A stretch of DNA of 32,000 nucleotides from Geobacter metallireducens GS-15. Its GTDB lineage: Bacteria > Desulfobacterota > Desulfuromonadia > Geobacterales > Geobacteraceae. Positions 169 to 18,533 of the stretch are shown here, piece after piece. The stretch covers positions 3,450,001-3,482,000 of the forward strand of contig NC_007517.1 in the NCBI RefSeq assembly GCF_000012925.1. The letters run 5' to 3'. A program made the position numbers and the translations under genes. Every line of letters starts with the position of its first letter. The first letter of the stretch is position 1. Under the pieces are notes generated by a model. That model searched no databases and was not told the origin of the DNA. It worked only from the letters and a program-made list of their open reading frames with translations.

Positions 169-825
169 TCAGCCTAAAGATCGCCCGCCCCTCGCACAGG
201 CACAAGTTCGCCCTGCCGCCACCCGTTCAAGATAGGCCGGCACTGCCTTCTTCGCCACGCCGCCGAGGGAGTGCATGAGCTCAAAGGTGACCTGCCTGAG
301 GCGATAGGTTTCCTTGAGTTCCCCGATCATCGCCGTCCAGAGCTGGGCGGTCATTTCCGCATCGGCGAGAGCCCGGTGGAAGACTCCGTCTGTCTGGAGG
401 CTGAGGTGGCTGACCAGCGTCTCCAGGCGGTGGTTTGGGGCATTGGTGTAGATCCGGCGGGCAGCGAGCATTGAGCAGGCAAAGTCCCCGGTCCGTCTCC
501 TGCCGATGCGGGAGAGTTCGGCGTCCAGGAAGCGGCGGTCGAAGCTCGCGTTGTGGGCAACCAGGTTGTGGCCGGCAATGAAGGAGGCAAACCGCTCCAT
601 CACCTGCTCCGCAGGTGGGGCCTTGGCCAGCATCTCATTGGTGATGCCGGTGTATTCCTCGATGAAACCGCTCACCCTCTTGCCGGGATTCATGAGACTC
701 TGGAATCTGTCAACAATCCGGTTGTTCCGGACCAGTACCGCACCGATCTCGATGGCCCGGTCGCCATAGCCAGGTGAGAGGCCAGTTGTCTCGAAGTCGA
801 GGATGACGGCGGTAAACTTCCCCAT
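169..825 (-). CDS. DnaQ-like DEDDh 3'-5' exonuclease (DNA polymerase III epsilon-subunit family)
   Basis: 218-aa ORF with Exo I '[10 protein letters not shown]', Exo II '[13 protein letters not shown]' and Exo III '[13 protein letters not shown]' motifs. Its ATG (823-825) shares one base with the TGA (825-827) of the upstream IHF-like ORF. Confidence 0.85.
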
Positions 826-1105: not shown

Positions 1106-1421
1106 GGGGTTACGCTTCCTCCCATTGCTTATCGTTTTTTAATCGCGGGAATTTACCACAAATTCATCGGGCAGAGGAAGCTTTCTGCGCAACACACCAT
1201 TGGCGTAACCGGTTGCGCTGATAGGATGTTAATCGGCATGGAACTTTGACCCACTTTGAGGGGTAATCGGCGTCCAAGAGTGACCCACCACTTAACAGGC
1301 TATCTTGTTGATATTGCGATTTTATTTATGTTGTTACCAGGGTCAACCTTGCTTGCCGATGGCGGGTCAATCCACGATGCCGATTAACAATCCACTACCA
1401 ATTCATGGAGAGGTCCGGGAG

Positions 1422-1715
1422 ATGACGAAAGCCGATTTAGCCGACAAAATTCAGGAAAGGATCTCTTGCCAGAAGAAGGAAGCCGTTGAATTGGTGGAAC
1501 TCGTCATGGAATCGCTCAAGGATGCCATTGCGACCGAAGGACTTGTGAAGATCAGCGGTTTTGGAAATTTTGTCGTTCGGCAGAAGACGGATAGAGCCGG
1601 AAGGAACCCGCAGACCGGGGAGACAATTACCATTTCATCTCGGAAGGTTCTGACGTTCAAACCAAGCGTGATCTTGAAAAATCGGATAAATTCCAGCTTG
1701 ATGTCAAGTGACTGA
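1422..1715 (+). CDS. IHF/HU-family DNA-binding protein (IHF-alpha-like), island-borne paralogue
   Basis: An internal ATG at 1422 is preceded by GGAG/GGGAG (1407-1421). The product 'MTKADLADKIQERISCQKKEAVELVELV...[37 protein letters not shown]' carries the GFGxF and R-x-GRNPxTGE signature. The 39 upstream codons of the track ORF (1305..) look non-coding. Confidence 0.85.
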   Translation: MTKADLADKIQERISCQKKEAVELVELVMESLKDAIATEGLVKISGFGNFVVRQKTDRAGRNPQTGETITISSRKVLTFKPSVILKNRINSSLMSSD

Positions 1716-1720
1716 TAGCA

Positions 1721-4702
1721 TTAGTCTCGTTGAACAAAGAACGGGGAAAGGTTTATCATTGCTTCCCGTGCCTTCATAATATCAGTCCCAACCTTCCGTG
1801 AAAGAATTTCAACAAGGTCTTCTTGATTCGGTTGACCGAGTACCATCCTATAAAGAAGACGCTGCTGCTTCAACCATTCTAATCGCTGGTGTTCCTCGCT
1901 AAGAGGAACACTGAAGATCCATCTTCTTGATTGAGCACCATTGCAAACCCACCAGGGTGACATTCCTGATTTATCGCTGAGAGTATCGTGCGCAAGACGC
2001 TCAAGCGTTTCCCACGGACTCCCAGAATTAGTCTTCCCGTAGATATCTACTTTAGATGCAATCGCCTGCCGAATACATAGTCCACCAAACCTTTGAATAC
2101 GACCCTCCCGCTGTTCCAAGTCAACAGGGTTCCTCGGAAGATCCCAATGAACCACAGTGTCGCACCAAAGGTGGAAATCCAGACCTTCCTGACCTACGGA
2201 CGTTGTTACTAAGACGTGAGGCCAGAATGGCGAATTAAAAGCCTTTTGAAGATCCTCAGTCCGCAACTGAGCTTCACCACCCTCTTGGAGGGCACCCTCC
2301 TTCATATCAATAAACGGCAGAGCAGCGTGGCAGCGCAAATTAAATGACGTTTCTCCGCTTGCAGCAGGAGCAGTTAACCTGAAAGATCCTGTTCGCAGCC
2401 TGAGAGCAGTCCGAAGCGCCTTTAAAAGATCTGATCCCTCGGCACCTCGCGTCTTCCGCAATATCCAGAAATGTTCGTCGAGAACGGCTTCAAGATTGCC
2501 ATCTTTCACCGCCTTACGTATTGCGTCCGGATAGGTATCATCTCTCGCTTCAAGTGCTGCAGCAAATACGGGGTGATCGAGGTATGACCTGAAGCCGTTC
2601 CATGACAGATCGAGTGTTTCGGCAAACCCTGATGCAGTTACCGCATCCGGCCAGTGTCTCTTCAAGGCACGCGCCAGAACAACCCCGGGCGATGAAAGAG
2701 CGTAATCTACAAGGTCTTCCAACTCTTTCGGGGTGACATGACCAACAGGTTTCCCTGCTTCATCCTCCCACTTCTTTACTGCGGCAGAAGAACCGGCCCC
2801 GAGAATGTCACGGCCTGCCGTCAGCGCTGCACGCCAGGCCGCTCCGATGAATCGCGCAGGTTTTGTATATTCAGCATCCAGGCGCGCAAGAAGTATCCAC
2901 GTTCGTCGCGCTTTTCCGCTTGATTCGACAGAAATTCCGAGATCCTTCAGTGCCTTTTTGATTTGGTCACGAACATTTTTCTTCAATCTGTCTGGGGCAC
3001 TCAATGTCACCAGAGGATCGATTTGAGAAAGAAAGATGGAGGGATGAAAGAGGCCAAGCAGTTGGGGCCGCTTCGGAGACGGTTGAAGAAGGCGCCTTTT
3101 GGAAACGCTTTCATAAACAACGTTAGTCCCACGCGCAGAAGCTACTTCCACGTCATAACTAAGTAAAGCAGCAACTGCCTGTGGAACGGCCCGGAAACGA
3201 CTGAACACCAACGCCTTGCCAGTCGTCTTTCCTTTCCATTTTCCTCGGAGGGGCCACCATGGGAATGATGGCGATACCCATGGCAAAGAGAGGGATTCCG
3301 GAGAAAGTCGTTGACGTAACGCGCGCATTTTTGGATGAGGGGGATCAAATGGCTTGAGTTTATCGCGAGATGATTTGCGGAACCAGGAAATGCCGCGTCG
3401 AGGTATGCATTTGGCATGGCGACGCGCAACGTAACGGATTGACATAGTCTGCATCGGGATTGGAATTGAGGACCAATAAGGAACCGCCCACGGATGGTGA
3501 CGCAGTTGGAAACAGTCGGCAAGATGTTTAAACGTCTTGATGTCTGCGCTGATCACTGACGAGGGAAGGTGTTCTGTTCGGAAATCATCCCAACCATCTG
3601 GATGCGCCCCCCTCTCTGTCCGAGCGACAATACACGAAAGAAGTGACTCAATTTCTATTTTTGCGACAGCTGCTTCAGATGAGGTAGGCGTACCCTTTCG
3701 AATTTCTTTTTCCAACACCCCAAAAGATTTCTGGCACCTGCCCAGACGAACTCCGCAATCATCAACATTTCCCCACAGAAATTTCAGAAGGCTGAGAAAT
3801 TCCGTATGGTGAGCGCTGCCTTCCGACTCTTCCCAACGACGGGAATACATCCTGTAGGGAGTTGCAGACAACAGCAGCAAACCAGGCCGACAAGAAGGGT
3901 CATCACCTCTCAGGACATTGATAACCCGTTTTTCTGCATTGTCGAGATCCGGCGCCAGAAGATCCCGAAAGCGTTGGAACTCGTCAAAAATTACCAGGTC
4001 GGGTGTTAATGTCCTTATTGCACATGCCGCTAGAGCATTTCGGAGGTGTGCTACAAAATCGAGTGCCTTTTTCGATTGAATTTCCAGGTTCTGAACGACG
4101 GACTGGCCTTTTCCAATGTCGAACTCCTCGCGAACAGATCGGATAAAGGACTTCAGCAGTGTGTCCGTAACTTTACTACGTTGCGTATAGACCGCAGCGC
4201 CCCAGGATCTTGAAGCTGAGCGCCGAAACACCTTTTCATCAACCAATTCAAGAAGCTCTGGCCACGCTGACTCTATAAGCGCAAAAATCAACGCCCGTTC
4301 TTCACATCGACCAGCACTTTTTCGTTTGCCACTTCTGAGAGGAATTGATGTATCCGGGGTGAGAGTGTAAATAGCAAGTTGTCTGTCCGAAGGCTTGACC
4401 GATGTCGCCATGAGGGTCAGACGATCCGTACGACTGGTGGCCGAATCTCTTCGATCATGCGGAATTACTTCCAGCAATTTGTTGCGATTCTGACGAGCTA
4501 CAGTAAGGTTACTGCAGACATAAAATACAACCAGCGGCCGAGTTTTTCCCTCCATCATCTTTTTAACAAGTGCCTGAGCAACAACAGTTTTCCCAAGGCC
4601 AACTTCATCGGCAACCAGAAACCGGCGTGATCCGTTTGGATCATGAAAGGCTTTCAGAATTCGAGCAACAGTTGCTTCCTGAAAAGGTTTCGGGTCGCTC
4701 AT
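1721..4702 (-). CDS. SNF2/SF2-family helicase-ATPase, last gene of the seven-gene defence operon
   Basis: 993 aa. Motif I is 'ADEVGLGKT' (about 4586-4600), motif II 'VIFDEFQRF', motif III 'LLLSATPY', and motifs V/VI 'LVTTSVGQEGLDF ... DLPRNPVDLEQREGRIQRFG'. The start lies 4 nt after the stop of the PLD gene. Confidence 0.85.
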   Translation of the reverse strand: MSDPKPFQEATVARILKAFHDPNGSRRFLVADEVGLGKTVVAQALVKKMMEGKTRPLVVFYVCSNLTVARQNRNKLLEVIPHDRRDSATSRTDRLTLMATSVKPSDRQLAIYTLTPDTSIPLRSGKRKSAGRCEERALIFALIESAWPELLELVDEKVFRRSASRSWGAAVYTQRSKVTDTLLKSFIRSVREEFDIGKGQSVVQNLEIQSKKALDFVAHLRNALAACAIRTLTPDLVIFDEFQRFRDLLAPDLDNAEKRVINVLRGDDPSCRPGLLLLSATPYRMYSRRWEESEGSAHHTEFLSLLKFLWGNVDDCGVRLGRCQKSFGVLEKEIRKGTPTSSEAAVAKIEIESLLSCIVARTERGAHPDGWDDFRTEHLPSSVISADIKTFKHLADCFQLRHHPWAVPYWSSIPIPMQTMSIRYVARRHAKCIPRRGISWFRKSSRDKLKPFDPPHPKMRALRQRLSPESLSLPWVSPSFPWWPLRGKWKGKTTGKALVFSRFRAVPQAVAALLSYDVEVASARGTNVVYESVSKRRLLQPSPKRPQLLGLFHPSIFLSQIDPLVTLSAPDRLKKNVRDQIKKALKDLGISVESSGKARRTWILLARLDAEYTKPARFIGAAWRAALTAGRDILGAGSSAAVKKWEDEAGKPVGHVTPKELEDLVDYALSSPGVVLARALKRHWPDAVTASGFAETLDLSWNGFRSYLDHPVFAAALEARDDTYPDAIRKAVKDGNLEAVLDEHFWILRKTRGAEGSDLLKALRTALRLRTGSFRLTAPAASGETSFNLRCHAALPFIDMKEGALQEGGEAQLRTEDLQKAFNSPFWPHVLVTTSVGQEGLDFHLWCDTVVHWDLPRNPVDLEQREGRIQRFGGLCIRQAIASKVDIYGKTNSGSPWETLERLAHDTLSDKSGMSPWWVCNGAQSRRWIFSVPLSEEHQRLEWLKQQRLLYRMVLGQPNQEDLVEILSRKVGTDIMKAREAMINLSPFFVQRD

Positions 4703-4706
4703 GATA

Positions 4707-6482
4707 TCAAACCAGCCCCTGTGTAATCATCTTCCATAATTCCTGAAATTTCTCAATTTCCGCCAGCTCCTCTGGGGTAGCATCGGTTTCATGTTGTTCA
4801 AAAGCCTTCAGAAAGGAGGTAACGCGTAGGTTTATATCGGCAAGCGTTTTTCGGTTTCTGGTCCACGCTCGAAGAATATCTTCAAGAGATGGCGCAATTA
4901 ACTCCATTTGGAATGAAACTCCGGAATCAGTTGAACCAGTTTTATCCGAAGTCCAGTCACCACCGCCATCACTCCCAGCATTATCGAGGAGAAGACTTCT
5001 CAGCCACTGAAGAAACATTCTTGGCCCAAGGTATGAAGCAAAGGCAAGCCGATCCCGTTCTTCACCAAGTGGAGGATTAACAGGAACTCGCTGGCACCAT
5101 TCCTGGGATTTTTCATTCAATGACAGGCGTATATGAATGAATTCACTATCACGCGGTCTCGGGACCAGGGGAAGAATAAGCGATGAAGCCCCCCTTGGCC
5201 ATGTATGTAATGCCTCTCCGAGAATGCCAACTTCCAGTTCGATCGCTGGCTTATGTGGATGAGGCGGGACCTTTGCGACAAGTTCATTTCTATCCGCATG
5301 AATTTGCCGCTGAACATCCCAGATTGCAGCAACCTCATTTCGAGCGTCCGCCAAATCTTTCTCGGTAGGATCGTCTGGATCGATGACCGGGGGCATGGAC
5401 GAATCAAACTCTTGAGATGAATCTGCAAAAGTGCGTAAACCTTTATAAACGGTCTCGTCCACGGTGAGTTCAGCTAATACCTCGTAATTCTCACTCCAAC
5501 CTCTTGTAGTCGCATTTGCGCTCCCAACCCACAAAGTGCGCCCCAAAGAATGCTTAACGGACAATATTTTCGCATGCAGTCCACGGGAAACATCTTCATC
5601 TGATTCCATAGCCTCGTCAAACTCAGGATGCGGTTCATCGGTAAGGGCCTCATCCAGGTACAACATTTCGGCATATGAAGAGAGTGGTTTCTTCGCTTGA
5701 GCTAGAAGTTTCGCCAGTGCAGTACCCGTTGAGAGTATTGTTCGATGAGTTTTTTCGTCTGCCCCCCAGCTTCCGAACTTTCGTACCGTGTTAGCATCCA
5801 AAAAAGGACTCACCAATAAGAGCTCGGATACACCTTTCGGTTCGGATGGGATATCGCGAAGTTCACCGGGGCAAAACAACTTGACATCTTTAACAGAAGT
5901 CCCTGCCGGCGCGTCCCATTGTACACCAGCGACCTTTAAGCGTATTATTTCAGGGAGTTCTGCGAATTCGGCGAGCTTCTTGACAAGTGGAGGTATGCCA
6001 GGAACTATGGTTCCCCGCTGGCCAGGGGTTCCAGTAAGGAGAATTCCCGTATCCCACGAAATATCTTGAGTCAGATTCCGGCTTCCCAACCAAAGCCGCC
6101 ATACCAGTCGACCATCGGCATCATTCCGATAACTGACGACTGTTGTTTTCGGATGCCACGATCTTTTTCTTTCATCAGCAGGAACCTCGCGAATGAATTG
6201 ATCACAAATGCCAATAATTCGGGAGGTCTTTCGTGGAAGGGAAACCCTTCCTCTCTGCACAACAAATCGGACACGTCGTCTCAGCATTTCGCAAGCATCA
6301 GCAAGATCCATCTTTGTGCCTGAACCACGATCATCATCCAGGCCAGCAAATGCCAGAAGTGCGGCAACTACAGCAACAAGATCGGCAGAGTAGGTAGCAA
6401 CTACTGCATACTCCACTCTCCAGCCGGGATCAGGTCTGATTGCATCTAGGTATGGCAAGCTGTCCCAATTTTGCCTGGTCAT
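4707..6482 (-). CDS. PLD-superfamily protein with two HKD motifs (single-chain nuclease-type PLD)
   Basis: The motifs are 'WHPKTTVVSYRNDADGRLVWRLWLGSRNLT' (about 6075-6155) and 'LHAKILSVKHSLGRTLWVGSANAT' (about 5514-5576). The track ORF starts at a TTG at 6527. The ATG at 6482 gives a classic ATGA overlap with the stop of the upstream ORF (6479-6481), so it is preferred. Confidence 0.8.
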   Translation of the reverse strand: MTRQNWDSLPYLDAIRPDPGWRVEYAVVATYSADLVAVVAALLAFAGLDDDRGSGTKMDLADACEMLRRRVRFVVQRGRVSLPRKTSRIIGICDQFIREVPADERKRSWHPKTTVVSYRNDADGRLVWRLWLGSRNLTQDISWDTGILLTGTPGQRGTIVPGIPPLVKKLAEFAELPEIIRLKVAGVQWDAPAGTSVKDVKLFCPGELRDIPSEPKGVSELLLVSPFLDANTVRKFGSWGADEKTHRTILSTGTALAKLLAQAKKPLSSYAEMLYLDEALTDEPHPEFDEAMESDEDVSRGLHAKILSVKHSLGRTLWVGSANATTRGWSENYEVLAELTVDETVYKGLRTFADSSQEFDSSMPPVIDPDDPTEKDLADARNEVAAIWDVQRQIHADRNELVAKVPPHPHKPAIELEVGILGEALHTWPRGASSLILPLVPRPRDSEFIHIRLSLNEKSQEWCQRVPVNPPLGEERDRLAFASYLGPRMFLQWLRSLLLDNAGSDGGGDWTSDKTGSTDSGVSFQMELIAPSLEDILRAWTRNRKTLADINLRVTSFLKAFEQHETDATPEELAEIEKFQELWKMITQGLV

Positions 6483-7696
6483 GATGCACTTCTTAAATCC
6501 GACAGAATCCTTCGGACGTTGTACCAACGGTATGAAAGCGGTTCGGCGAGAGTATTGTCTTCAATTCCCCACTCCGCTCTACGTTTCTTGGCCGCAGGCG
6601 TTGAAGGTAATCTTGACCTAGTGCCCTTACGACGTATTTCAGCCTTTTGATAAACCTCCAGAAGATCCAAATAATTGTGCCCTCCCTTATTCAGCCACAA
6701 TTGGGTCTCGCGAAGAAGTGTGGTGAATTGTGGTGGAATACCCGGGATATCTTGCTCAACGGAGCTAATATCAAGATTTTTCGCAGGAGTTATGTACTGA
6801 GGGATAGTCTTGAGAATTTGTTTCCGGTGGTGACTTGGCGTTTCATTTCCATCACGTTCTCGTAATTCTTCTACAAGTGCCGAATAGATCGCACGGCCAA
6901 TGGCAGCGAGTGCGGAAGCTCGTCCAGCTCGTCTTAGCGCTGCACGATCATCAGTATCAGCAATAGCCATGACCGTACGATCCCAAGGGGATTGAATTTC
7001 TTCCACCGGCAGGGCTCGCTCAACCAGTGATGATAGCAATGACGTTTTGTCTGGGGTTCCGGGCCTGGTAACAGCACTCAAATGTCGCCGTAGAAACGCA
7101 GCCTCGTCAGGCTGTATATCAAACGTGAGAGAAGCGCTCTTATCCGTCCACTCTTTTGGTGGTCTTGGAATGCTTGAAAATAACTCCAATCCTTCTTCGG
7201 TAGGTTCGCCATCGTCATCTACAAGTTGAGGAACCATAGTGCGCTTCACCAACATTCGATTAACAACCGCCCTTCCAGGAATAGTGCCCGACATTGTCGG
7301 GCGAAGAATCCCCCATGTCCCCAGCGCTGTCCAGTAAACCATAGAAGCAGGCTGAGAAGTCGGACCGGGGTAAGACCTCCCCCCGATAACCCCATCTTGA
7401 CCGGTTCTCTTTAAACGTCCTGCGAGGCTGATCTCCATACGGGAAATGGCACGTTCCGGTGTTTCGCTCAGGTTTCTATTCCGTGCTTCTTCGTAAAGCC
7501 ATGGAACAAAGAGGATGTATCTTAGACGTGTTTGGAGAACTGAAGTCCCAGGGAAAAAACGGTTCGCATATCCCTGGTGAAGTGCGAGGAACCCGACTTC
7601 GTCTCGTACCCCCTGCTCATCGTTACGCAGTTTCGCCTCGGCCCGCCTCAAAGCATCTCGAGATAGCACCGTCCAACCTAATGCTGGCTCCAACAT
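6479..7696 (-). CDS. Hypothetical 405-aa protein, first gene of the helicase/PLD trio, with no catalytic motif recognised
   Basis: A long uninterrupted ORF. Its ATG lies 5 nt downstream of a perfect AGGAGG within the 11-nt spacer after jetD. The stop overlaps the PLD start (ATGA). The N-terminus contains 'FFPGTSVLQTRLRYILFVPW', and the C-terminus is basic. Confidence 0.7.
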   Translation of the reverse strand: MLEPALGWTVLSRDALRRAEAKLRNDEQGVRDEVGFLALHQGYANRFFPGTSVLQTRLRYILFVPWLYEEARNRNLSETPERAISRMEISLAGRLKRTGQDGVIGGRSYPGPTSQPASMVYWTALGTWGILRPTMSGTIPGRAVVNRMLVKRTMVPQLVDDDGEPTEEGLELFSSIPRPPKEWTDKSASLTFDIQPDEAAFLRRHLSAVTRPGTPDKTSLLSSLVERALPVEEIQSPWDRTVMAIADTDDRAALRRAGRASALAAIGRAIYSALVEELRERDGNETPSHHRKQILKTIPQYITPAKNLDISSVEQDIPGIPPQFTTLLRETQLWLNKGGHNYLDLLEVYQKAEIRRKGTRSRLPSTPAAKKRRAEWGIEDNTLAEPLSYRWYNVRRILSDLRSAS

Positions 7697-7698
7697 GC

Positions 7699-7704
7699 CC
7701 TCCT
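7699..7704 (-). promoter_or_regulatory. Shine-Dalgarno AGGAGG for the 405-aa ORF, inside the 11-nt jetD/ORF405 spacer
   Basis: The minus strand reads TGA-TATAGGAGGGC-ATG across 7710..7694. Confidence 0.6.
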
Positions 7705-7707
7705 ATA

Positions 7708-8913
7708 TCATTGGGTTTCTACAGCCGGCGTGAAAGGATTAACATTTTCCTGTTCTAGTGTCTTTGGCGGGTCTGTCGAAATGATAGCAGCCGCCAATAA
7801 AGCGATAGCCGGATATTTCTCAGCCGTCCGTTTGACTTCGTCCACCCGCAGGCTGGGTTTTGGCAGACCGCACGAGGCAAGGAGATCAACAGTCATTAAA
7901 TGAGGTTGCAAGGTCCGACGTAATAACCCTTGTACGTAGACAAATATTTTCAGTCCGCCCTCGTCAATATCCCCCCAATGGAAAAAAGGCATTCCAGATG
8001 GTAGTGAGACATCAAGCATCCGAAGAAAGTCAGCAAGACCTGGGGAGGGGAAGCCGGCTGTATAAAGAACAAGCCCGTTATCTCGAATCTCGGCGGCATA
8101 ACGATTGAAGCTTGCAAGATTTTCTACAGTCAGAACGTACTCTGGCAACTTATCGGCCGAAACTCCCCGAATAGCTTGAGGTGGCAATCCCACGAAAGGC
8201 CGAATGCCTTCGCAGTCGAGGTGACGGTCAGAAAGCTTCAAAACAACCGGCCCGCTAAGCAATAATGGAGGAGGAAATCTGACCAGCCCAAGCGTTTCTA
8301 ACAGCTCTTCGCCCGTCAGCTCTGTCGGATGGTATTTTTTCCAGACTGACGTAAATCGTGCCAGCATACCCTCCATAGCCTTGGAGTCCCCGAACTCGCG
8401 AGTACTGAACGTCCGCAGATCGAGATTGAGGTGACGGCCGGCGACAACCGCCTCCAATGCCCGGACCATCAGTCGGGCTGACGCGGTATCCCCCGGAGAC
8501 ATGCCAGCGGCCGACTGGTTTCGGCTCCACTTGCCGAGAAGGTCCTCAACCCATTCATTTATCCAAGTTTCTCGCCCGCTGAGCGCCGTTTCCAGTATGG
8601 AGCGGGCATCATCTGCCTGCTTGGCAGCCAGCGGCATCCCCAGATAATTGGCTAAGCCAGGACCATCTGTCAGGGTGATTCGTTTCAGAATGTGGCTTTC
8701 ATACCCTCTCCCCCATTCGAGCGCCACTGTCCCTGCCGAGGCTGCTTCAAGGAGCCCTGCGTGAATGGCCTCCTTAGCTTCAGGAAGAGACGCTTCAAAA
8801 TATTGTGGGGCCCTGGCTTGAGTGATTGGCAGTCGAACCAATCGGGAACGGTCGGGATTAGCCTGCCAGGCATCGAGGAGTTTCCTAAGGAGTTGACGGC
8901 TAGACTGGTTCAT
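7708..8913 (-). CDS. jetD: Wadjet JetD (MksG-like, Toprim-containing nuclease subunit)
   Basis: 401 aa. The C-terminal Toprim-like motifs are 'LTVENLASF' (acidic E) and 'FHWGDIDEGGLKIF' (DxD). It is the fourth gene after jetABC and overlaps the jetC stop by 14 nt. Confidence 0.8.
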   Translation of the reverse strand: MNQSSRQLLRKLLDAWQANPDRSRLVRLPITQARAPQYFEASLPEAKEAIHAGLLEAASAGTVALEWGRGYESHILKRITLTDGPGLANYLGMPLAAKQADDARSILETALSGRETWINEWVEDLLGKWSRNQSAAGMSPGDTASARLMVRALEAVVAGRHLNLDLRTFSTREFGDSKAMEGMLARFTSVWKKYHPTELTGEELLETLGLVRFPPPLLLSGPVVLKLSDRHLDCEGIRPFVGLPPQAIRGVSADKLPEYVLTVENLASFNRYAAEIRDNGLVLYTAGFPSPGLADFLRMLDVSLPSGMPFFHWGDIDEGGLKIFVYVQGLLRRTLQPHLMTVDLLASCGLPKPSLRVDEVKRTAEKYPAIALLAAAIISTDPPKTLEQENVNPFTPAVETQ

Positions 8914-11900
8914 GAAGGAACTCCGCCGTTCCCGAAGCCTTCCGGTAAGGGTTGTCGGTTCTCAGCATTGCCCGCATGGCAGGTTTGATGGAAATCACCT
9001 CCGTCTCCACCGTGCCGCCGTCTCGCGTTACCCAGACAATAGTGTCCATCACCTCGGCCATTGTGGCGAATTTTTCGTCGGGCGCAGCGACAATAAGCTG
9101 AAGCTGGATGTTCTTCAGAAACTCGATGCAGCTGTGGCAGGTTGCGACACTGAGCTTCGAGAATGCCTCATCGAAAACTGCCAAGCTCATGCCACCGTGA
9201 TGTTTACCGTATTCTTCCTTGAGACGGTAGGCCGCTGCCAGTGATGCGCCGATAGCAACATAGAACGGGGTCTGGTTTTCGCCACCGGAACCCTTCTGGA
9301 TACGATGTTCGAGGTCGGATGTTGGGGTCCCCTCCGTATCACACATCTCCACATCAAACACCAGAAAGTTCCGGTAGTCCTGCAGCCTCTCCGCGGCCTT
9401 GGGATCCTGCAAAGCGGTGGTAATATCTTCCAATGCCTTGCGGTGCGGGCTATTGGAATCTGCAACAGGATCAAACAGTCCGCCCACTTCACGTGACGCC
9501 GGGCTATTGCAGGCCTTGGCAAAATCAATGATATGCTTAAATTCTGGGTTGGAGCTGGAACGAAACTTGTAGATTTCGCCATGGAAAGGATGCTTCTCCA
9601 GCGTCTTGTTAAGCTGGGTGATCGACCCTCTTACGGCCTCGACCTTGCCTATCAGGCGGCCTACAAACTTGGAGCGGAAGGTGTCCTCAGCTTCCTGGAG
9701 TGCTCTGGCCGATTTTTCGCGGTATTCGGCCAGAGTGGTTTCGACCAGGTGTTTTTTCTTCCGTCGGATAGTGACGGCGTACTCTTCGAAATGCTCTGGT
9801 CGGGATTCTTCGCCCTCTTCCAGAGCGAAGCGGAGATAATACTCCGTGTACTCCTTGATCATTCGAGTATTGTTTTCTTCGATTGTTTTTAACGCTGAAC
9901 CTATCTCCTTTTCAGCCCTTTCACAGATCGCCGCAAAATCCCCGGCGTTCTGCTCGCGCCACCGGTCAAGGGTATCGGCTGCCTTCGCAGGATCAAGCAG
10001 CGGATTCCCACGCTTCTCTTCCAAGACAACTTGCAGAGCGTCCATCTGAGCGTCAAGAGCCTTCAATTTGTCATCGTTTTGTGCGTACTCTTTTTCAGCT
10101 TGAAGGCGCTTTTCATCCAGATCCTTGAGACTTTTCTTTATTCCTTCTGCCTTGTCCTCAAGCTTCTTGATTTCATCTCTGAGTTTCTGCTCCCGGGCAT
10201 CAGAAGCCAAGGCTGCAAGTTTTTCCTGCATCTCCTGGATGGCTTTCTCAGAAGCTGTGCGCTGCTCTACGAGAGCGGACAATGAAATAACGGCATCGCC
10301 CGAGAACTGCCGCTTGCAATCTTCCAGCAGAACTTTCAGACTGCCGAGATTCTCCTTTTCTCCTACTACCCCCGCCTGTTTTGTCGACAGCTCGTTCAAA
10401 TCACGTTGATAAGCAACCCGCAACCCTTCTCGGGAACCTCTCCCCAAGATTGGCTGTACGTTCTTCAGCTCTGATACTGTACCACCGGAACTCAACATCC
10501 CATCGGCAGTTGCGGCCCGGTCGTGGTGAAGCAGGTCCTTCTCGGTATCGACGCAGACGATATTCCCGAGACGGCGATTGATAAACGCCCTCGCATGCAC
10601 ATCATCGGTGTTGAGGCAATCGGCTAGAGTGCCCTGCTGTTTGGAGGCCTTCCAGCGGTCGGTCTGGGTTGTATTGATGATATGACAGCCGGGAAACTCT
10701 TGCCTCCCCTCATGGCGATAGAGGTGAACTGCCTTGCGGGCCTGCTCAGGAAGCACTACCAGGGCCTCGCGGATATTGCCGAGAATGCTTTCAATGGTGC
10801 CGCGCCACGTCTCGTCGGCAACATCCACCAGATCGCACAATGGCTTGGATTCAATGCCATGTTTCTTGAAAAACTGAATCAGATTCCGAGTGTTTGGTTG
10901 AAGCGGGGCTTTACCGTGTTGTAGCTGCTTGAGTGCTTCAACGAGATTTTTCAGCCGCTTCTCCAAGTCCTTATGATCCGCACAGAAATCATCATAGCGG
11001 CTGCTCAGTTCCGGTAAAGAGCGCTCAACTGCCACCAGCAGCAATTCAAGACAGATGTCAACCTCGGAAGGATTTGACGGCCAGACCGCGGTGCTTATCA
11101 TGTCGTCACCCGGCATCAGTTTGACTATATCGGAAATGGCCACGGCCAGAGAATCATTGACCGGCACATCCTTAAGTTTTTCAAAGCGCTGCAGCAGCCT
11201 GCGGATCTCGGTAATCCTCGCCTTCACATCTCCTTCGCGCTGCCTTGCCTGATCACTTTCTAATTGCAGGCGATCCCGCTGGACTTGGACATCACAGAGC
11301 TTCAACTCCCCACGTTTCTCACCGAGTTCCTCTTGAACCTTTGCCTGCTGGTCCTCAAGAACCGTCTTGTCCTTACCCATATGCTCGCGGGCCTCTTCAA
11401 GATCGGCCAACGCGCCCCGCAAGGGGTCGGCGCTTCCCTCAATCTGCTCGATACGGGCATTCAACGAGACATACTCGGCCATCACATGTTGGGCGCGAGC
11501 ATTTTCCACCTTCTCGCAGCAAACTTCGAGGCGAGTCAAATCAGCGACCCGCCGACTAACCGATTCGGTCTTCTCCGCCATGTCACGATAATTTTTCAAG
11601 GCGCTCTGCAGCTCCTTGATCTGCAGGTCATCACGATCGAGCATGTAGCGGCGGATGAACTCGGTAGGATCGGAGATCTTCTCCAGGCGGAACGCTGCTT
11701 GGAGAGCCTTGAGAACGGTCTTGTCATTGTTGGGTGAACCTGGGTGTTCACTCAGGCAGCCGTAGAGATCCTGGGTGAATTTTCCCGGCTCGTGGTGAAA
11801 CCGGGTGGCGTGGCACCTTTTCGCCAAGCGCTCCTTGACGCGCGCCCAGGGCAGGACAATCGTGCTGTCGCCTTTGCCCTGTTCCAGGAACAGGTCCTTG

Positions 11901-12322
11901 TGCCCAACCAGGCCGGGGCAAATGAAATACCCTTCCACCTTTTCTGCCATGTCTGCCATGCAAGCATAAATGCCAAGCCCGACACAGGTGGTTTCCCCGG
12001 TCTCGACATCATGGAAGTTCAGGGCCAGATAGCAATTCGCTTTGTCTCGCGGCTTGATCTTCGTGGCAAGTTCCGGTTTTTTCGGGTCCGACATGACCCC
12101 AAGGACGTATTCCCAGAGTTTGCGGGAGGATTGTTCATTGCTCCCCCGATTTAGGACCAGGAGCCGCTTGTTTGCCCCGGTCAGCACAGTCTGGATGGCG
12201 TCAAGCAAGGCCGATTTGCCAGCGCCATTATCGCCAATGAAGGCTGTATTGCCAACGATTGGGATTTCTACGGCTTCAAGGCGGAACCATTGAATGAGAA
12301 CGGCTTTAATCAATGTCTTCAT
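8900..12322 (-). CDS. jetC: Wadjet JetC (MksB-like SMC-family ATPase)
   Basis: 1140 aa. The N-terminal Walker A is 'IGDNGAGKSALLDAI'. A very long E/K/L/Q-rich coiled-coil occupies the middle. The C-terminus has the signature 'GSGGENQ' and Walker B 'LAVFDEAFSKL'. ATGA overlap with jetB. Confidence 0.85.
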   Translation of the reverse strand: MKTLIKAVLIQWFRLEAVEIPIVGNTAFIGDNGAGKSALLDAIQTVLTGANKRLLVLNRGSNEQSSRKLWEYVLGVMSDPKKPELATKIKPRDKANCYLALNFHDVETGETTCVGLGIYACMADMAEKVEGYFICPGLVGHKDLFLEQGKGDSTIVLPWARVKERLAKRCHATRFHHEPGKFTQDLYGCLSEHPGSPNNDKTVLKALQAAFRLEKISDPTEFIRRYMLDRDDLQIKELQSALKNYRDMAEKTESVSRRVADLTRLEVCCEKVENARAQHVMAEYVSLNARIEQIEGSADPLRGALADLEEAREHMGKDKTVLEDQQAKVQEELGEKRGELKLCDVQVQRDRLQLESDQARQREGDVKARITEIRRLLQRFEKLKDVPVNDSLAVAISDIVKLMPGDDMISTAVWPSNPSEVDICLELLLVAVERSLPELSSRYDDFCADHKDLEKRLKNLVEALKQLQHGKAPLQPNTRNLIQFFKKHGIESKPLCDLVDVADETWRGTIESILGNIREALVVLPEQARKAVHLYRHEGRQEFPGCHIINTTQTDRWKASKQQGTLADCLNTDDVHARAFINRRLGNIVCVDTEKDLLHHDRAATADGMLSSGGTVSELKNVQPILGRGSREGLRVAYQRDLNELSTKQAGVVGEKENLGSLKVLLEDCKRQFSGDAVISLSALVEQRTASEKAIQEMQEKLAALASDAREQKLRDEIKKLEDKAEGIKKSLKDLDEKRLQAEKEYAQNDDKLKALDAQMDALQVVLEEKRGNPLLDPAKAADTLDRWREQNAGDFAAICERAEKEIGSALKTIEENNTRMIKEYTEYYLRFALEEGEESRPEHFEEYAVTIRRKKKHLVETTLAEYREKSARALQEAEDTFRSKFVGRLIGKVEAVRGSITQLNKTLEKHPFHGEIYKFRSSSNPEFKHIIDFAKACNSPASREVGGLFDPVADSNSPHRKALEDITTALQDPKAAERLQDYRNFLVFDVEMCDTEGTPTSDLEHRIQKGSGGENQTPFYVAIGASLAAAYRLKEEYGKHHGGMSLAVFDEAFSKLSVATCHSCIEFLKNIQLQLIVAAPDEKFATMAEVMDTIVWVTRDGGTVETEVISIKPAMRAMLRTDNPYRKASGTAEFLHEPV

Positions 12323-12939
12323 TGTCCCCCCCCTGCTTCATCGGTTCCGTTTTCCTCGCCTTCTCCTCCTTTGGTGTATTCTTCCAAAGCCTGCAAGAAA
12401 CCGTGCGTTACTATGTCACGGATCGATGGGCGAATGCGGAAGCGGATCGCCTTGTCCTCGTCTTCGTCGATCTCTAAAAGCCCTTGGCGGGAGAAGGTTC
12501 TAAGAATTTCGCGCAGCCTCACCAAGCCTGGCCGCTTTCTGCCGGTGTGCGCAACAAAGGTGTCCAGCATGACCTCGCTGTCGGTAAAGACCTGCGAAAA
12601 CTCTCCCACTCTGCACTCCTGGGCGGCTCTCTCGTAGATGACCCGCAGGACGAGGAGGAACAGAGAGTGTTCAGTGTCCAGGCCAACGGTCAGATGAGAT
12701 TCCCGGGGGACCACGCCAACATACCCTGCCGTCCGGTCGCATATCAATTCGAGATTCAGGGCATCGAACAGGTTTCGGTAATAATCCTCGGCGTCGAGGA
12801 TCTGGTGAAAAGAACGCTGGTCCCTGCTCTTGTCTCCGAAAAGGAACTGACGATCCAGGGCAATTGATGCTGCGCGACGTAAATCCTCTGCGGCCAGGTT
12901 TTCATCCTTATCAAGCATGCGACGGAGCTCGTGAAGCAT
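12319..12939 (-). CDS. jetB: Wadjet JetB (MksE-like KITE subunit)
   Basis: An acidic 206-aa protein in the canonical position between jetA and jetC. The call rests mainly on size, synteny and operon coupling. Confidence 0.7.
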   Translation of the reverse strand: MLHELRRMLDKDENLAAEDLRRAASIALDRQFLFGDKSRDQRSFHQILDAEDYYRNLFDALNLELICDRTAGYVGVVPRESHLTVGLDTEHSLFLLVLRVIYERAAQECRVGEFSQVFTDSEVMLDTFVAHTGRKRPGLVRLREILRTFSRQGLLEIDEDEDKAIRFRIRPSIRDIVTHGFLQALEEYTKGGEGEENGTDEAGGGQ

Positions 12940-12942
12940 CCC

Positions 12943-14367
12943 CTACCCCTTCCTTTCGACGATAAAATCGCTGCATTCCAACAGTGGTGTATCAAGCCGA
13001 TCCCCTGTGCGGCGAATGTTGAACAGAGGCATGTTCGGGACCGGTTTGCCCTTCATCTGGTTGAGAAAAGGGACAAAGGCAAATGCCACCAACTCATCGA
13101 CCGATTCGATCTTGAAATCCTTAGCCGCGAACGTGGCGCGCTCCCCCATCTGCCGGTCGATGAACGCAACCACTTTGGCAGGTGACATGACACGCCGCTG
13201 CAGGTAATCCTGGATAAGCCGCAGGCGCTCTTTGACTTCTGTACTGAGTTCCTGCTCCCTGGCCAGCTCGATGAATTGAGGTTGTCGGCGTCTCTGTGGT
13301 TTGCGGATGCTGCGATGACTCAACAGCGCATGAGATATCCAGCGAGGAGGTTGGGGTAAAGCGGGGAGCTCTCCATCGGGCTGCTCCAGCGATCTCCTGC
13401 CGAGCTCTTCCAGCAGCTTGATTCCTCGGTTGGTTAGATCGGGAACGTTGCGATCCATGTAACGGACCATTTCCGCCACCCGTGATTCCAGGCGCATGCG
13501 GTACAAATCGATGGCATCGAGTCGCCGATCAACTGAGCGGAACACCCTGGCGATAAAATGAAGATCGCTTATCACCTTTTCCCGCGCTGCGTCTGGCGCC
13601 AGGTTCTTGTCTTCCTGGTAGACCTTGATCAGCGCCGTCATGATTGAGTCTATATGTTCGATCTGAATCAGGAGGTTCAGGACATTGGCGCGATGACGAA
13701 AGGGGTTGTTTTCCGCCTGGAGGGACTTGTAATCGGAGATCAGCAGATTCTCGACAAAATCATCGAAAAAAGTGGACAGGGCAAGTTTAGGGTTGTGCTG
13801 ACGGGTGATGATGTCCTGAAAGCCGCGGAGGCCGGAGAAGATATTTTGCAAGTGACGGGTGAAGTCACGCGCCGCTCTAACAACCTCAATGAATGCGCGG
13901 GCATTGTCTTCAGGGTGATTGGCAATCGCCTGGAGTTGTAGATGGATAGAGGCGATGGTGCTGCCGTAGTTCTTCTTTTCTGCATGGGCGACACCTTCAA
14001 GGGCCTCCAAGAGAAGACTGGCGTGAGGTGGCATGATGACGTTGACGTGATAGCCGTCTTCTTCCTCTTCGAGCCAGCCTGTCACGACGAGGCGCTTGTA
14101 GATGTACCTGGCGGCCGGCCCTGGCGCATTGCTGATATCCTCCTCCGCGTCCCCTTCCTCATCGACGATTTGCAGCAGGCGGCCTTTGCGTTCCAGCAGT
14201 TCTTCTATCTCACGGACGACATGACCGCGTCGTGGAAAAACCGCCTCGTTGGTTATATCCTCATCCGAGAAATACCTGAAAAGGAAGAGAAGGATTTCCT
14301 CAAAGAAATATCTGTTTGCGCCCGCGAGAGGCTTGAAGATTTCGTCGGGCAGCTTGTTGAAAAGCAT
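12943..14367 (-). CDS. jetA: Wadjet JetA (MksF-like kleisin subunit)
   Basis: 474-aa first gene of the operon, with its stop 3 nt before the jetB start. The call rests on size and order matching jetA-B-C-D, and no catalytic motif is expected. Confidence 0.7.
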   Translation of the reverse strand: MLFNKLPDEIFKPLAGANRYFFEEILLFLFRYFSDEDITNEAVFPRRGHVVREIEELLERKGRLLQIVDEEGDAEEDISNAPGPAARYIYKRLVVTGWLEEEEDGYHVNVIMPPHASLLLEALEGVAHAEKKNYGSTIASIHLQLQAIANHPEDNARAFIEVVRAARDFTRHLQNIFSGLRGFQDIITRQHNPKLALSTFFDDFVENLLISDYKSLQAENNPFRHRANVLNLLIQIEHIDSIMTALIKVYQEDKNLAPDAAREKVISDLHFIARVFRSVDRRLDAIDLYRMRLESRVAEMVRYMDRNVPDLTNRGIKLLEELGRRSLEQPDGELPALPQPPRWISHALLSHRSIRKPQRRRQPQFIELAREQELSTEVKERLRLIQDYLQRRVMSPAKVVAFIDRQMGERATFAAKDFKIESVDELVAFAFVPFLNQMKGKPVPNMPLFNIRRTGDRLDTPLLECSDFIVERKG

Positions 14368-15156: not shown

Positions 15157-15613
15157 TTAATGCTTATTAGTGACCGTTCCCATTCTCGCTAGCTTTAGAG
15201 CCTGTTCGAACGTGACAGACATACCGCCATTTCTCTTCGCGAAAGCCTTGGCATTCTGCTTACTGACAAAGGCCAACTGCTCCACATTAGACATAAGCCC
15301 CTTCTGGTTACTGCCAACAATCCATGCCGCCGATTTTGCTTCTAACAGCTTCCCCGAATTGAAATCAGCCACCTTGATCGATATGGCCTGCTTACCAGTT
15401 CTCTCGTCCATCGCCATCGCAGCACAATGCAAACTGCAGGTCCCAACGGTAGTCCCATCAGTATAAACGATTAGCATTCGGCTATGGGCAAAACTTGTCC
15501 GGTTCATCCCGCACATCAGGCAAGACGCCGGGGCCTCTCACCCTCTCTAGTGCGAAGGCTGGGGAATCTACAAAAACAAGGCAAAGCATGATGCCCAGCA
15601 TAAATTTGTCCAT
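15157..15613 (-). pseudogene. NosL-like (CxxCGM motif) periplasmic protein, separated from its signal peptide by a frameshift
   Basis: The body ORF 15157..15516 has 'SCLMCGMN...YTDG...CSLHC' and a C-terminal 'AKAFAKRNGGMSVTFEQA' typical of NosL-family proteins. A signal-peptide-like ORF 'MDKFMLGIMLCLVFVDSPAFA' starts at 15613 in a different frame and stops shortly after. A TGA at 15538-15540 blocks the body frame. The shift must lie around the G4/C4 run at 15530-15533. Confidence 0.45.
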
Positions 15614-15910: not shown

Positions 15911-17617
15911 TCAACCGAATGCGCAAACTGCGATGATCTCGATCAACCTGTTGCGCCAAGCCGACAGGTGTTCAACGCTATCCTTATGTGGATGATTCTT
16001 TCTTTCCAAGACGATGCCTTTACGCCTCAAGCTTTTTTGGGTCTCGTCGAATAGCTCCCTTTCCACGTAATCTCGTACAACTTCGTCGGCCAGGTCCCTA
16101 GTGACCACAGTAGATGAAATCAAAACGTACGTAGAACATCCCGATGGTAAGCCCGACTGATCAATCTCTACCAAGCAAACGTATTTTTCTCGATACCTGA
16201 ACCAGACATAAGCACATTCCCGTCGCTTCTCAGCTGTATTACCATATGTCTCCCGTAAAGACGGCTTACGAGAACCTCTCTGTCTTTGCCAGACAGGCTG
16301 CCTTGACAATGAAATACGAGTCACCGCTGCAATGCTGCTGTCCTCATTGACCAGCCTATACCCTTTCAGCCCTCTGACCAACCGCACAAAATCGTCCAAA
16401 GGCATTGAGTAGTCATCGGGCTCGGCAGCATCACCATCGTCTCGCTCCACCTTCGCCTTCGCAATGGCAATATCGTCCATGGGATAGTCTTGCTGGGTAC
16501 TCAGCTCAACATCCTTATCGCCAGGCATTAACTTGGGAACCTTTCCCTCATCCTTGCGTGGTGTAGGAATGTAGTCCTTGTTCTCCCTTATGGCACGTGC
16601 ATTACAGTTGGCGATGCTCACATGGTTCTGGAGGATCCTTCGGATGTAACGGCTGGAAGGATTGCTGGGTGCAAGGTTCTTCCCTGACTTTGCTGTCAAA
16701 GCCGGGAAAGTTTCCGTATCCCCATCAGGATCATCAATTTCATACGTTCGTCGATCAATAGTGATGCTGTCGAAAGGAAAGAGGCTGTCTTCTTCCAATA
16801 CCTGGAACACAACAAAAGTCTTGCCACCTTCAGGATTGGTGGCAAGATGCCCTCTCGCCTTGATTGTTATTTCCTGGTTGACTGGAAAATCCACCTTGAG
16901 GCGTTGAAATTGACCACTATCGGCGTTAACGCTATTCCGAACCATTCTCATGCGACTACCCGCGAATCCATTAGCCAGAAATCGGACTATGCTCTTTGCG
17001 TCAGAATCCGCAGCGCCAGGTTTCATGGTGATCTTGGCGTGTAGGGTACTATCATCCAATGAATAGTCTTCGTGGAGGCGCTTTAGGTTTTGAGAAAAGA
17101 CCGCCTCACGCAAGGAGGTGGATTTGAAATAGTAGACGCCTGCGAGAACTGCGCAAGGAATGACGATCTTCATATCGTCACAGTGAAATACCAGACACTG
17201 CTGGTTCTTGCAGATGGCCGAGTTATTTTTGGTAAAATCGCTCTGATAGCGCGTGCTGGTCAACGAAAGATCGTATTCTAAGTCAGTTAACGCGTCCTGG
17301 ATCCGTACGATTTTATTATGCTCGGAGGAGTTGACAGTAAATTTACGGACGGTACCTAGCGCTGGTTCTTTGATCAGTTTCCTGCCCTTGGCGAAATAGG
17401 AGCCTACAGTGCAATACGAAAGGAGCTCAGGAGGGATGGTGTCGGCGAGATAATAACCGGTCTTGACGTTTTTAAACAGTAGCCTGATGAGGCAACGGGA
17501 TGAACTTACGTTTAGGTTGAGGATCCAGACGAGTTGAAAGCGATTTCTGGGATCCTCGGACCTCATCTTTGGCAGGATGTATATTTTGTCGAGGTCAGCC
17601 GGCACGTTACCCCGCAC
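15911..17617 (-). CDS. Hypothetical 551-568-aa protein immediately inside the transposon-like end
   Basis: A long ORF in low-G+C DNA. The track start is a GTG at 17617 and the first ATG is at 17566. No catalytic motif was recognised. The acidic central linker contains '[14 protein letters not shown]', and the C-terminal region contains '[11 protein letters not shown]...STYVLISS'. The 3' end abuts the IS5 remnant. Confidence 0.65.
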
Positions 17618-17623
17618 CGGAGT

Positions 17624-17669
17624 TGTAGCAATAACTATTGAAATGTAGCGTTAACTTCTGAAAATGACA
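17624..17669 (-). repeat. Transposon-end-like terminus: 5'-TGT end plus two tandem ~22-bp direct repeats
   Basis: Read inward on the minus strand, the end is TGTCATTTTCAGAAGTTAACGCTACA (17669..17644), followed by CATTTCAATAGTTATTGCTACA (17645..17624). The two copies agree at about 17 of 22 positions. comM homology stops at about 17670. Confidence 0.45.
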
Positions 17670-18533
17670 GTTCCCTCCGCCGATCAATCCCACATCCGAG
17701 ATAGTGTGATGGGGTGACCTGAACGGGCGCTGCGCCACGAGCGCATTGTCCCGGTCAAGGAGCCCCATGACGCTGTAAACCTTGGTCGTTTCGATGGCCT
17801 CCTCGAAGGACATGCGGGGAAGGATGGTCGGAATCCGCCGGGAGAGCATGGTCTTGCCGGATCCCGGCGGACCAATCATAATGATATTGTGAGACCCGGC
17901 GGCCGCCACCTCCAGTGCCCGCTTGGCATGTTCCTGCCCCTTCACCTCGGAGAAGTCGTCGCCCGCGTCGGCGCTCCGTGCGAAGAACTCCTCCACGTCC
18001 ACCCGGGACGGGTCGATGGACCGGTCGCCGTTGAGAAAATCCACTACTTCGGCCAGTTCCGATACGCCGACGACCTCGATACCCTCCACCACCGCTCCCT
18101 CGCGGGCGTTTTCCAGGGGAACCACGATGCCGCGCAGCCCCGCATTCCGGGCGGCCACGGCCACGGGGAGACAGCCGCGGACCGGTTTGACGCTCCCGTC
18201 CAGGGAGAGCTCGCCGAGGAGGAGGTACTCCTTGAGCCGCTCTCCCTTGACGACGCCGATGGCGGCCAGGATGCCGATGGAGATGGGGAGGTCAAAGGAG
18301 GCCCCCTCCTTCTTCAGGTCGGCGGGGGCCAGGTTGACGGTGATCTTGCGGGGGGGAAAATCGTAACCGGAGTTCTTGAGGGCTGATTTGACCCGGTCCT
18401 TGCTCTCCTTGACGGCGCCGTCAGGAAGCCCCACGGTGGCGAACTGGGGAAGTCCCTGGGCGATATCCACCTCCACGTCGACGATGACTGCGTCGATCCC
18501 GAGGAGAGCGCTGGAGAGGGCCTTGGCTAACAT
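17670..18533 (-). pseudogene. comM: comM/yifB Mg-chelatase-like AAA+ protein, 5' fragment truncated by insertion
   Basis: The N-terminal Lon-like domain and Walker A 'GPPGSGKTM' are present. The family-typical '[19 protein letters not shown]' is followed by an unrelated tail '[21 protein letters not shown]' instead of the expected Walker B region. About 288 of an expected roughly 500 codons are present. Confidence 0.8.

Follow-up and report, generated by a model that had tools for sequence, protein, structure and literature searches.

Which system does a 405-amino-acid (aa) protein with no obvious catalytic motif serve, when its gene stands directly ahead of genes for a PLD-family nuclease and a helicase? 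This question is raised by the open reading frame (ORF) at 6479-7696 in a 32,000-nucleotide (nt) window of the Geobacter metallireducens GS-15 genome (NC_007517.1, positions 3,450,001 to 3,482,000; all coordinates below are those of the window). An original prediction, made from the DNA letters, had reported the ORF without its strand and proposed it as a candidate sensor or specificity subunit for its two neighbors. The ORF is present, on the minus strand, and it is almost certainly the ZacA protein of a complete and apparently intact Azaca anti-phage system (ZacA-ZacB-ZacC), a name attributed to Millman et al. 2022 (PMC10952713). We consider it highly probable that the best explanation of the locus as a whole combines this identity with carriage as island cargo and an adaptor and DNA-contact role of ZacA; the role of ZacA, taken by itself, is proposed more tentatively below.

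Identification of the locus as Azaca

The protein matched the PADLOC ZacA model from end to end (E = 3.4e-88, profile positions 3-393 of 396), and Pfam PF19888 (DUF6361) scored 82.8 bits against a cutoff of 25 over profile positions 5-259 of 388. The lack of a recognizable catalytic motif held up, with DUF6361 as the only family found: no other was matched by Pfam at E ≤ 10, NCBIfam, or the PDB sequence profile search, and none of the hidden Markov model (HMM) libraries searched returned a catalytic-family signal. A confident match to a housekeeping family had been named in the original prediction as a result that would speak against it, and the HMM searches found none. Its tentative assignment of the N-terminal block to a DUF family tied to helicase/PLD defense loci was correct, as the block belongs to DUF6361, the ZacA family, encoded by the first Azaca gene.

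ZacA has many relatives, comprising 665 word-indexed homologues and 2433 clusters at 50% identity in an exhaustive profile search; one of them, P0005, is 85% identical. Full-length homologues are mostly about 390-440 aa and nearly all stand-alone, and shorter matches cover part of the profile. A metagenome protein of 1128 aa (P0127) lacks ZacB and runs straight from ZacA (profile positions 5-322) into ZacC (227-1017). The fusion search matched nothing else; this protein has the appearance of an assembly chimera or of an Azaca operon shortened by deletion, and we rejected it as a natural fusion that could serve as a partner clue.

The two genes that follow zacA were identified in the same way. 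ZacB matched its PADLOC model with E = 3.5e-117 (profile positions 1-579 of 586) and Pfam PLDc_2 with 30.6 bits (cutoff 27), while ZacC matched its PADLOC model with E = 3e-271 (profile positions 10-1017 of 1019) and the Pfam families ResIII and Helicase_C. NCBIfam held no model for ZacA or ZacB and gave only sub-threshold helicase-core matches for ZacC. The two HxK...GSxN motifs of ZacB (H110-x-K112...G133-S-R-N136 and H303-x-K305...G320-S-x-N323) were at least 97% invariant in 72 sequences and are present here. The same is true of the ZacC motifs GLGKT (35-39), DEFQ (240-243), SATP (279-282), and Q864-R-x-G-R-x-x-R871 (at least 97% invariant), which represent helicase motifs I, II, III, and VI. 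Every catalytic motif of ZacB and ZacC is intact in this copy; the system is complete and looks functional.

We compared the trio across 80 related loci from species genomes (Planctomycetota, Chloroflexota, Acidobacteriota, Alpha-, Beta-, and Gammaproteobacteria, and others). zacB lay directly after zacA in 79/80 loci, the exception (L070) ending at a contig edge, and zacC came next in 72/80. Seven of the eight loci without zacC also end at a contig edge, and locus L073 has 1.4 kb of sequence past zacB with no zacC match. Absence of conserved adjacency to PLD and helicase genes was the second result that the original prediction had held to count against it, and adjacency was what these loci displayed. 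In G. metallireducens the three genes likewise run A-B-C, side by side on the same strand, with an ATGA overlap between zacA and zacB and a 4-nt spacer between zacB and zacC. The profile matches, the intact motifs, and the conserved gene order therefore identify a standard Azaca (ZacABC) system. Any novelty of the system falls away, since Azaca is already named and partly characterized; the gain is in annotation, where a 'hypothetical protein' and its two neighbors become a named, complete defense system.

Start and coupling of zacA

Immediately 5' of and into zacA, the minus strand reads, in order, TGA (the stop codon of the upstream gene jetD), TAT, AGGAGG, GC, ATG, and TTG. There are thus two start candidates, the ATG at 7696 with a 2-nt spacer to the Shine-Dalgarno hexamer and the TTG at 7693 with a 5-nt spacer. 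The AGGAGG previously placed 5 nt upstream of the ATG is real, but that spacing applies only to the TTG. A start at TTG 7693 would also give the N-terminal length usual for the ZacA family, which has the consensus M-x4-GW. The zacA start codon is slightly uncertain because of this spacing and the family-typical N-terminus.

The predicted ATGA coupling between zacA and the PLD gene is real and occupies 6482-6479, with the zacB ATG at 6482-6480 and the zacA TGA at 6481-6479. The PADLOC ZacB match begins exactly at the overlapping Met, and we therefore read the PLD gene as 591 aa from the ATG at 6482 and not as the 606-aa ORF from a TTG. The ORF leads the trio as proposed, but it is not a free-standing operon leader, as its ATG follows the jetD TGA by 11 nt on the same strand.

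Conservation and predicted structure of ZacA

The conserved-looking N-terminal block singled out in the original prediction corresponds to residues 35-66 and lies in what proved to be the most conserved stretch of the ZacA family. The mean column maximum frequency was 0.83-0.94 over residues 31-60 and 0.94 over residues 46-60, and in 73 ZacA sequences G35, F36, L37, H40, F48, P49, G50, T51, V53, T56, R57, Y60, P65, and W66 were at least 97% invariant. The basic C-terminus also stood up, as the segment quoted for it (residues 355-376) falls within a basic C-terminal half (residues 248-405, isoelectric point about 10) with invariant R356, K357, R360, R362, R373, and R390.

An AlphaFold2 model from a 51-sequence alignment had a predicted local distance difference test (pLDDT) score of 86 and a predicted template modeling (pTM) score of 0.82. 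Residues 1-30 had pLDDT below 50 and are predicted to be disordered, yet G7, S12, A15, and A19 within them are invariant. Beyond residue 30 the model consists of an alpha+beta region and then a helical C-terminal half; an acidic loop at the conserved D160-D162 is poorly defined. Residues 31-247 (hereafter the N-domain) modeled alone reached pLDDT 90 and pTM 0.86, and because this segment folds on its own with such a score it is predicted to be an autonomous domain.

Structure searches placed the predicted fold near nothing else. Foldseek at E ≤ 0.001 gave no match in the PDB for the full model or the N-domain, and none for ZacA in BFVD. Only DUF6361 clusters were matched in the ESM Atlas, where other models had template modeling (TM) scores of at most 0.26. 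In VIA-align against 48,161 PDB representative chains, the full model reached a Z-score of 4.7 at best and the N-domain 3.4, neither of which is significant. Outside DUF6361, the modeled ZacA fold thus has no significant structural relative in any of these three structure collections. About half of the top 50 VIA rows for the N-domain were winged-helix DNA-binding domains, all with Z ≤ 3.4, among them ORC/Cdc6, PadR-like, ETS, histone H1, MUS81, and the BpuJI, N.BspD6I, and PaqCI recognition domains. These superpositions are weak (best Z 3.4 with a root-mean-square deviation of 3.6-4.0 over 81-90 residues for the N-domain; Z 4.2 for the full model), and we treat the winged-helix flavor of the modeled N-domain as a weak lead only.

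Residues 9-51 (7544-7672, minus strand) weakly resemble a motif found in each REP domain of the phycobilisome linkers CpcN, Glr1262, and CpcJ. This was the only PDB profile match, with a summed E of 5e-5 and every single i-Evalue 28 or worse; we rejected kinship with the linkers in favor of a probable chance likeness between helix hairpins.

A possible role for ZacA

A 2025 preprint (bioRxiv 10.1101/2025.07.10.664194) is the only mechanistic work on Azaca that we found, and a PDB sequence search found no solved structure for any Azaca component. BmAzaca and KpAzaca gave E. coli strong and selective protection against T4-like phages, and purified BmAzaca preferred T4 DNA carrying glucosyl-hydroxymethylcytosine and cut at a highly degenerate motif, A-down-NT (bioRxiv 10.1101/2025.07.10.664194). 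Cleavage of T4 DNA required ZacA, ZacB, and ZacC together, a ZacC Walker A mutant and a ZacB nuclease-site mutant were inactive, and ZacA was described as uncharacterized (bioRxiv 10.1101/2025.07.10.664194). The earlier proposal that the ORF encodes a subunit of the nuclease-helicase pair is borne out by this requirement in the Bacillus orthologue.

For ZacA itself we tentatively propose, with somewhat less than even confidence, a non-enzymatic adaptor or licensing subunit that contacts DNA. Through the ATGA overlap, ZacA and ZacB would be made at a fixed ratio, and the conserved N-terminal peptide of ZacA (residues 1-30, disordered in the monomer model) and near-invariant block (31-66) would dock it to its partner proteins. 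The basic helical C-domain (248-405), perhaps together with the winged-helix-like N-domain (31-247), would contact DNA, and the SNF2-like motor ZacC would then carry ZacB, the double-HKD nuclease, to DNA that is foreign (hypermodified).

Several points weigh against this proposal. Mutation of highly conserved ZacA residues left complex formation and in-vitro cleavage of T4 DNA unchanged (bioRxiv 10.1101/2025.07.10.664194), so that an adaptor model leaves the role of the most conserved block unexplained. The stoichiometry of ZacABC could not be determined (bioRxiv 10.1101/2025.07.10.664194). The suggested DNA contact draws on charge and on matches of the modeled fold far below significance (Z ≤ 4.7), and the target of the Geobacter system could differ from that of the Bacillus system.

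The in-vitro result with the conserved-residue mutants leaves room for a sensing or discrimination role of ZacA that is seen only in vivo. ZacA, with a fold that has no relative outside its own family, may be a new kind of reader or licensing subunit by which the PLD-nuclease/SNF2-motor pair recognizes foreign DNA, such as the hypermodified DNA of phages, and block 31-66 may serve self/non-self discrimination in vivo and not cleavage chemistry. We regard this as possible but doubtful.

An enzyme or small-ligand sensor of new fold, with the polar block as an active or ligand site for infection sensing or self/non-self discrimination in vivo, is improbable. The near-invariant polar residues D32, E33, H40, Y43, T51, S52, T56, R57, R59, and Y60 would suit such a site, conservation over residues 46-60 is above expectation for a simple scaffold, and the absence of fold relatives in the three structure collections would fit a new activity; yet no cofactor-binding motif was seen in ZacA and the HMM libraries were silent on catalysis. 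The biochemistry can be read both ways, since normal in-vitro cleavage by the conserved-residue mutants leaves room for a role confined to the cell, while the continued need for the ZacA protein in that same reaction points first to a structural role (bioRxiv 10.1101/2025.07.10.664194).

Sequence comparison makes it very improbable that ZacA is a variable target-recognition (specificity) subunit, HsdS-like, that reads DNA sequences and diversifies between strains. Across 49 loci in which all three proteins are near full length, mean pairwise identity was 0.479 for ZacA, 0.418 for ZacB, and 0.470 for ZacC. ZacA thus varies least among the Azaca proteins and is therefore not a variable specificity subunit; the 'specificity subunit' of the original prediction is unsupported if it means a target reader that varies. 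Position as the first gene of a nuclease-motor operon, lack of a catalytic motif, and weak VIA likeness to the type IIS recognition domains of FokI, N.BspD6I, BpuJI, and PaqCI (Z 2.6-4.2) would suit such a subunit, but no hypervariable region of that type is evident in ZacA, and the degenerate cut motif and preference for T4 DNA differ from recognition of a specific sequence (bioRxiv 10.1101/2025.07.10.664194). The divergences of ZacA, ZacB, and ZacC show strong correlation (Spearman about 0.8), which is what joint inheritance of a complex would give.

ZacA is the one Azaca component without a known fold or role, though it is required for DNA cleavage. As the most conserved subunit, with a predicted autonomous N-domain and no significant likeness in the PDB, it offers starting points for structural and mutational work.

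Genomic island and neighboring genes

The features of the window are collected in Table 1. GC content is 47-56% across about 1-18 kb of the window and 60-68% in the flanks. ZacA was found in none of the 11 other species of the genus that were searched, and in 1/36 genomes of the family (31% identity). This sparse occurrence and the GC step fit carriage of Azaca as cargo in a horizontally acquired low-GC defense island.

Table 1 Coordinates of the Azaca genes, the adjoining Wadjet genes, and other island features in the window.
Feature	Position	Strand	Description
zacA	6479-7696	-	405-aa DUF6361 protein, predicted non-catalytic Azaca subunit; TTG 7693 is an alternative start
Shine-Dalgarno AGGAGG	7699-7704	-	Inside the 11-nt jetD-zacA spacer; read directly from the minus-strand sequence
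zacB	4707-6482	-	591-aa PLD-family nuclease, two HKD-type motifs; ATG overlaps the zacA stop
zacC	1721-4702	-	993-aa SNF2-like SF2 helicase/translocase; starts 4 nt after the zacB stop
jetD	7708-8913	-	401 aa, full-length PADLOC match; last gene of a complete Wadjet system
jetC	8900-12322	-	1140 aa, full-length PADLOC match
jetB	12319-12939	-	206 aa, full-length PADLOC match
jetA	12943-14367	-	474 aa, full-length PADLOC match
NosL-like fragment	15157-15516	-	119 aa; island edge
568-aa ORF	15911-17617	-	Lies between Wadjet and the comM stub; matched by neither Pfam nor PADLOC
comM-like (ChlI/ComM-type) ORF	17607-18533	-	Island end; truncated, Mg_chelatase match runs only to profile position 95 of 207
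HU/IHF-type DNA-binding protein gene	1305-1715	+	Island edge
RNase T-family exonuclease gene	169-825	-	Island edge

The island carries two full systems, Wadjet and Azaca, which is useful for judging in advance which phages and plasmids this metal-reducing bacterium may resist. No terminator-like site or hairpin was seen in the 11-nt spacer between jetD and zacA, and co-transcription of the jet and zac genes is therefore plausible. That jetABCD-zacABC form one seven-gene composite system, with Azaca as an extra effector arm of Wadjet, is hardly tenable and largely refuted by comparative data: the shared strand, the short uninterrupted spacer, and the finding of only weak promoter-like sites, inside jetD, would suit it, but Jet genes lay within 10 kb in 0/80 related Azaca loci, tblastn for Jet at E < 0.1 returned one chance-level fragment only, upstream neighbors elsewhere are mixed defense or toxin genes, and Wadjet and Azaca are each complete alone.

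Close upstream neighbors are common among the related loci. An upstream ORF on the zacA strand, read from stop to stop and 120 aa or longer, ended within about 130 nt of zacA in 50/76 loci, and ten upstream ORFs that were scanned included a ResIII/SNF2 helicase of about 1200 aa, a DUF4143 AAA ATPase, HipA, DUF6079, UvrD-PD-(D/E)XK, an HD protein, NERD-UvrD, and AbiEii. We considered a conserved fourth Azaca gene upstream of zacA and rejected it; many loci do have a same-strand gene within 100 nt, but the families are unrelated. Placement of Azaca close behind such varied genes is typical of defense-island packing.

Comparison with known defense systems

DISARM (with the PLD nuclease DrmC and the SF2 helicases DrmD and DrmA) and the PADLOC candidates PDC-M27 and 'PLD_Helicase' (compare the PLD anti-phage protein of NCBIfam NF042964) likewise pair a PLD-type nuclease with an SNF2-like helicase. 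ZacB gave weak, partial matches to DrmC and PDC-M27B, and the C-terminal helicase lobe of ZacC did so to DrmD, DpdE, PDC-M27C, and RapA. These matches are limited to the shared catalytic cores (for example ZacC residues 806-881) and lie far under the cutoffs, as with DrmD at 67 bits against 610. The Geobacter locus has neither DrmB/DUF1998 nor a methyltransferase, unlike DISARM, and a DUF6361 protein sets Azaca apart from DISARM, PDC-M27, and PLD_Helicase, none of which has one.

The agreement with Azaca itself (BmAzaca and KpAzaca) covers the same three families in the same order, with the same tight coupling and sizes, and full-length profile matches at the Geobacter locus. The Geobacter copy differs in its host, a deltaproteobacterium-like genome and not Bacillus or Klebsiella, in being known here from sequence alone, and in its setting, where a Wadjet operon ends 11 nt ahead of it and the low-GC island around both adjoins a truncated comM. 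All three genes of the full form are there, ZacA being the canonical 405-aa protein and ZacC the helicase. The locus adds an ordinary representative to an already described anti-phage system, and standard defense-system HMMs detect the cassette at once.

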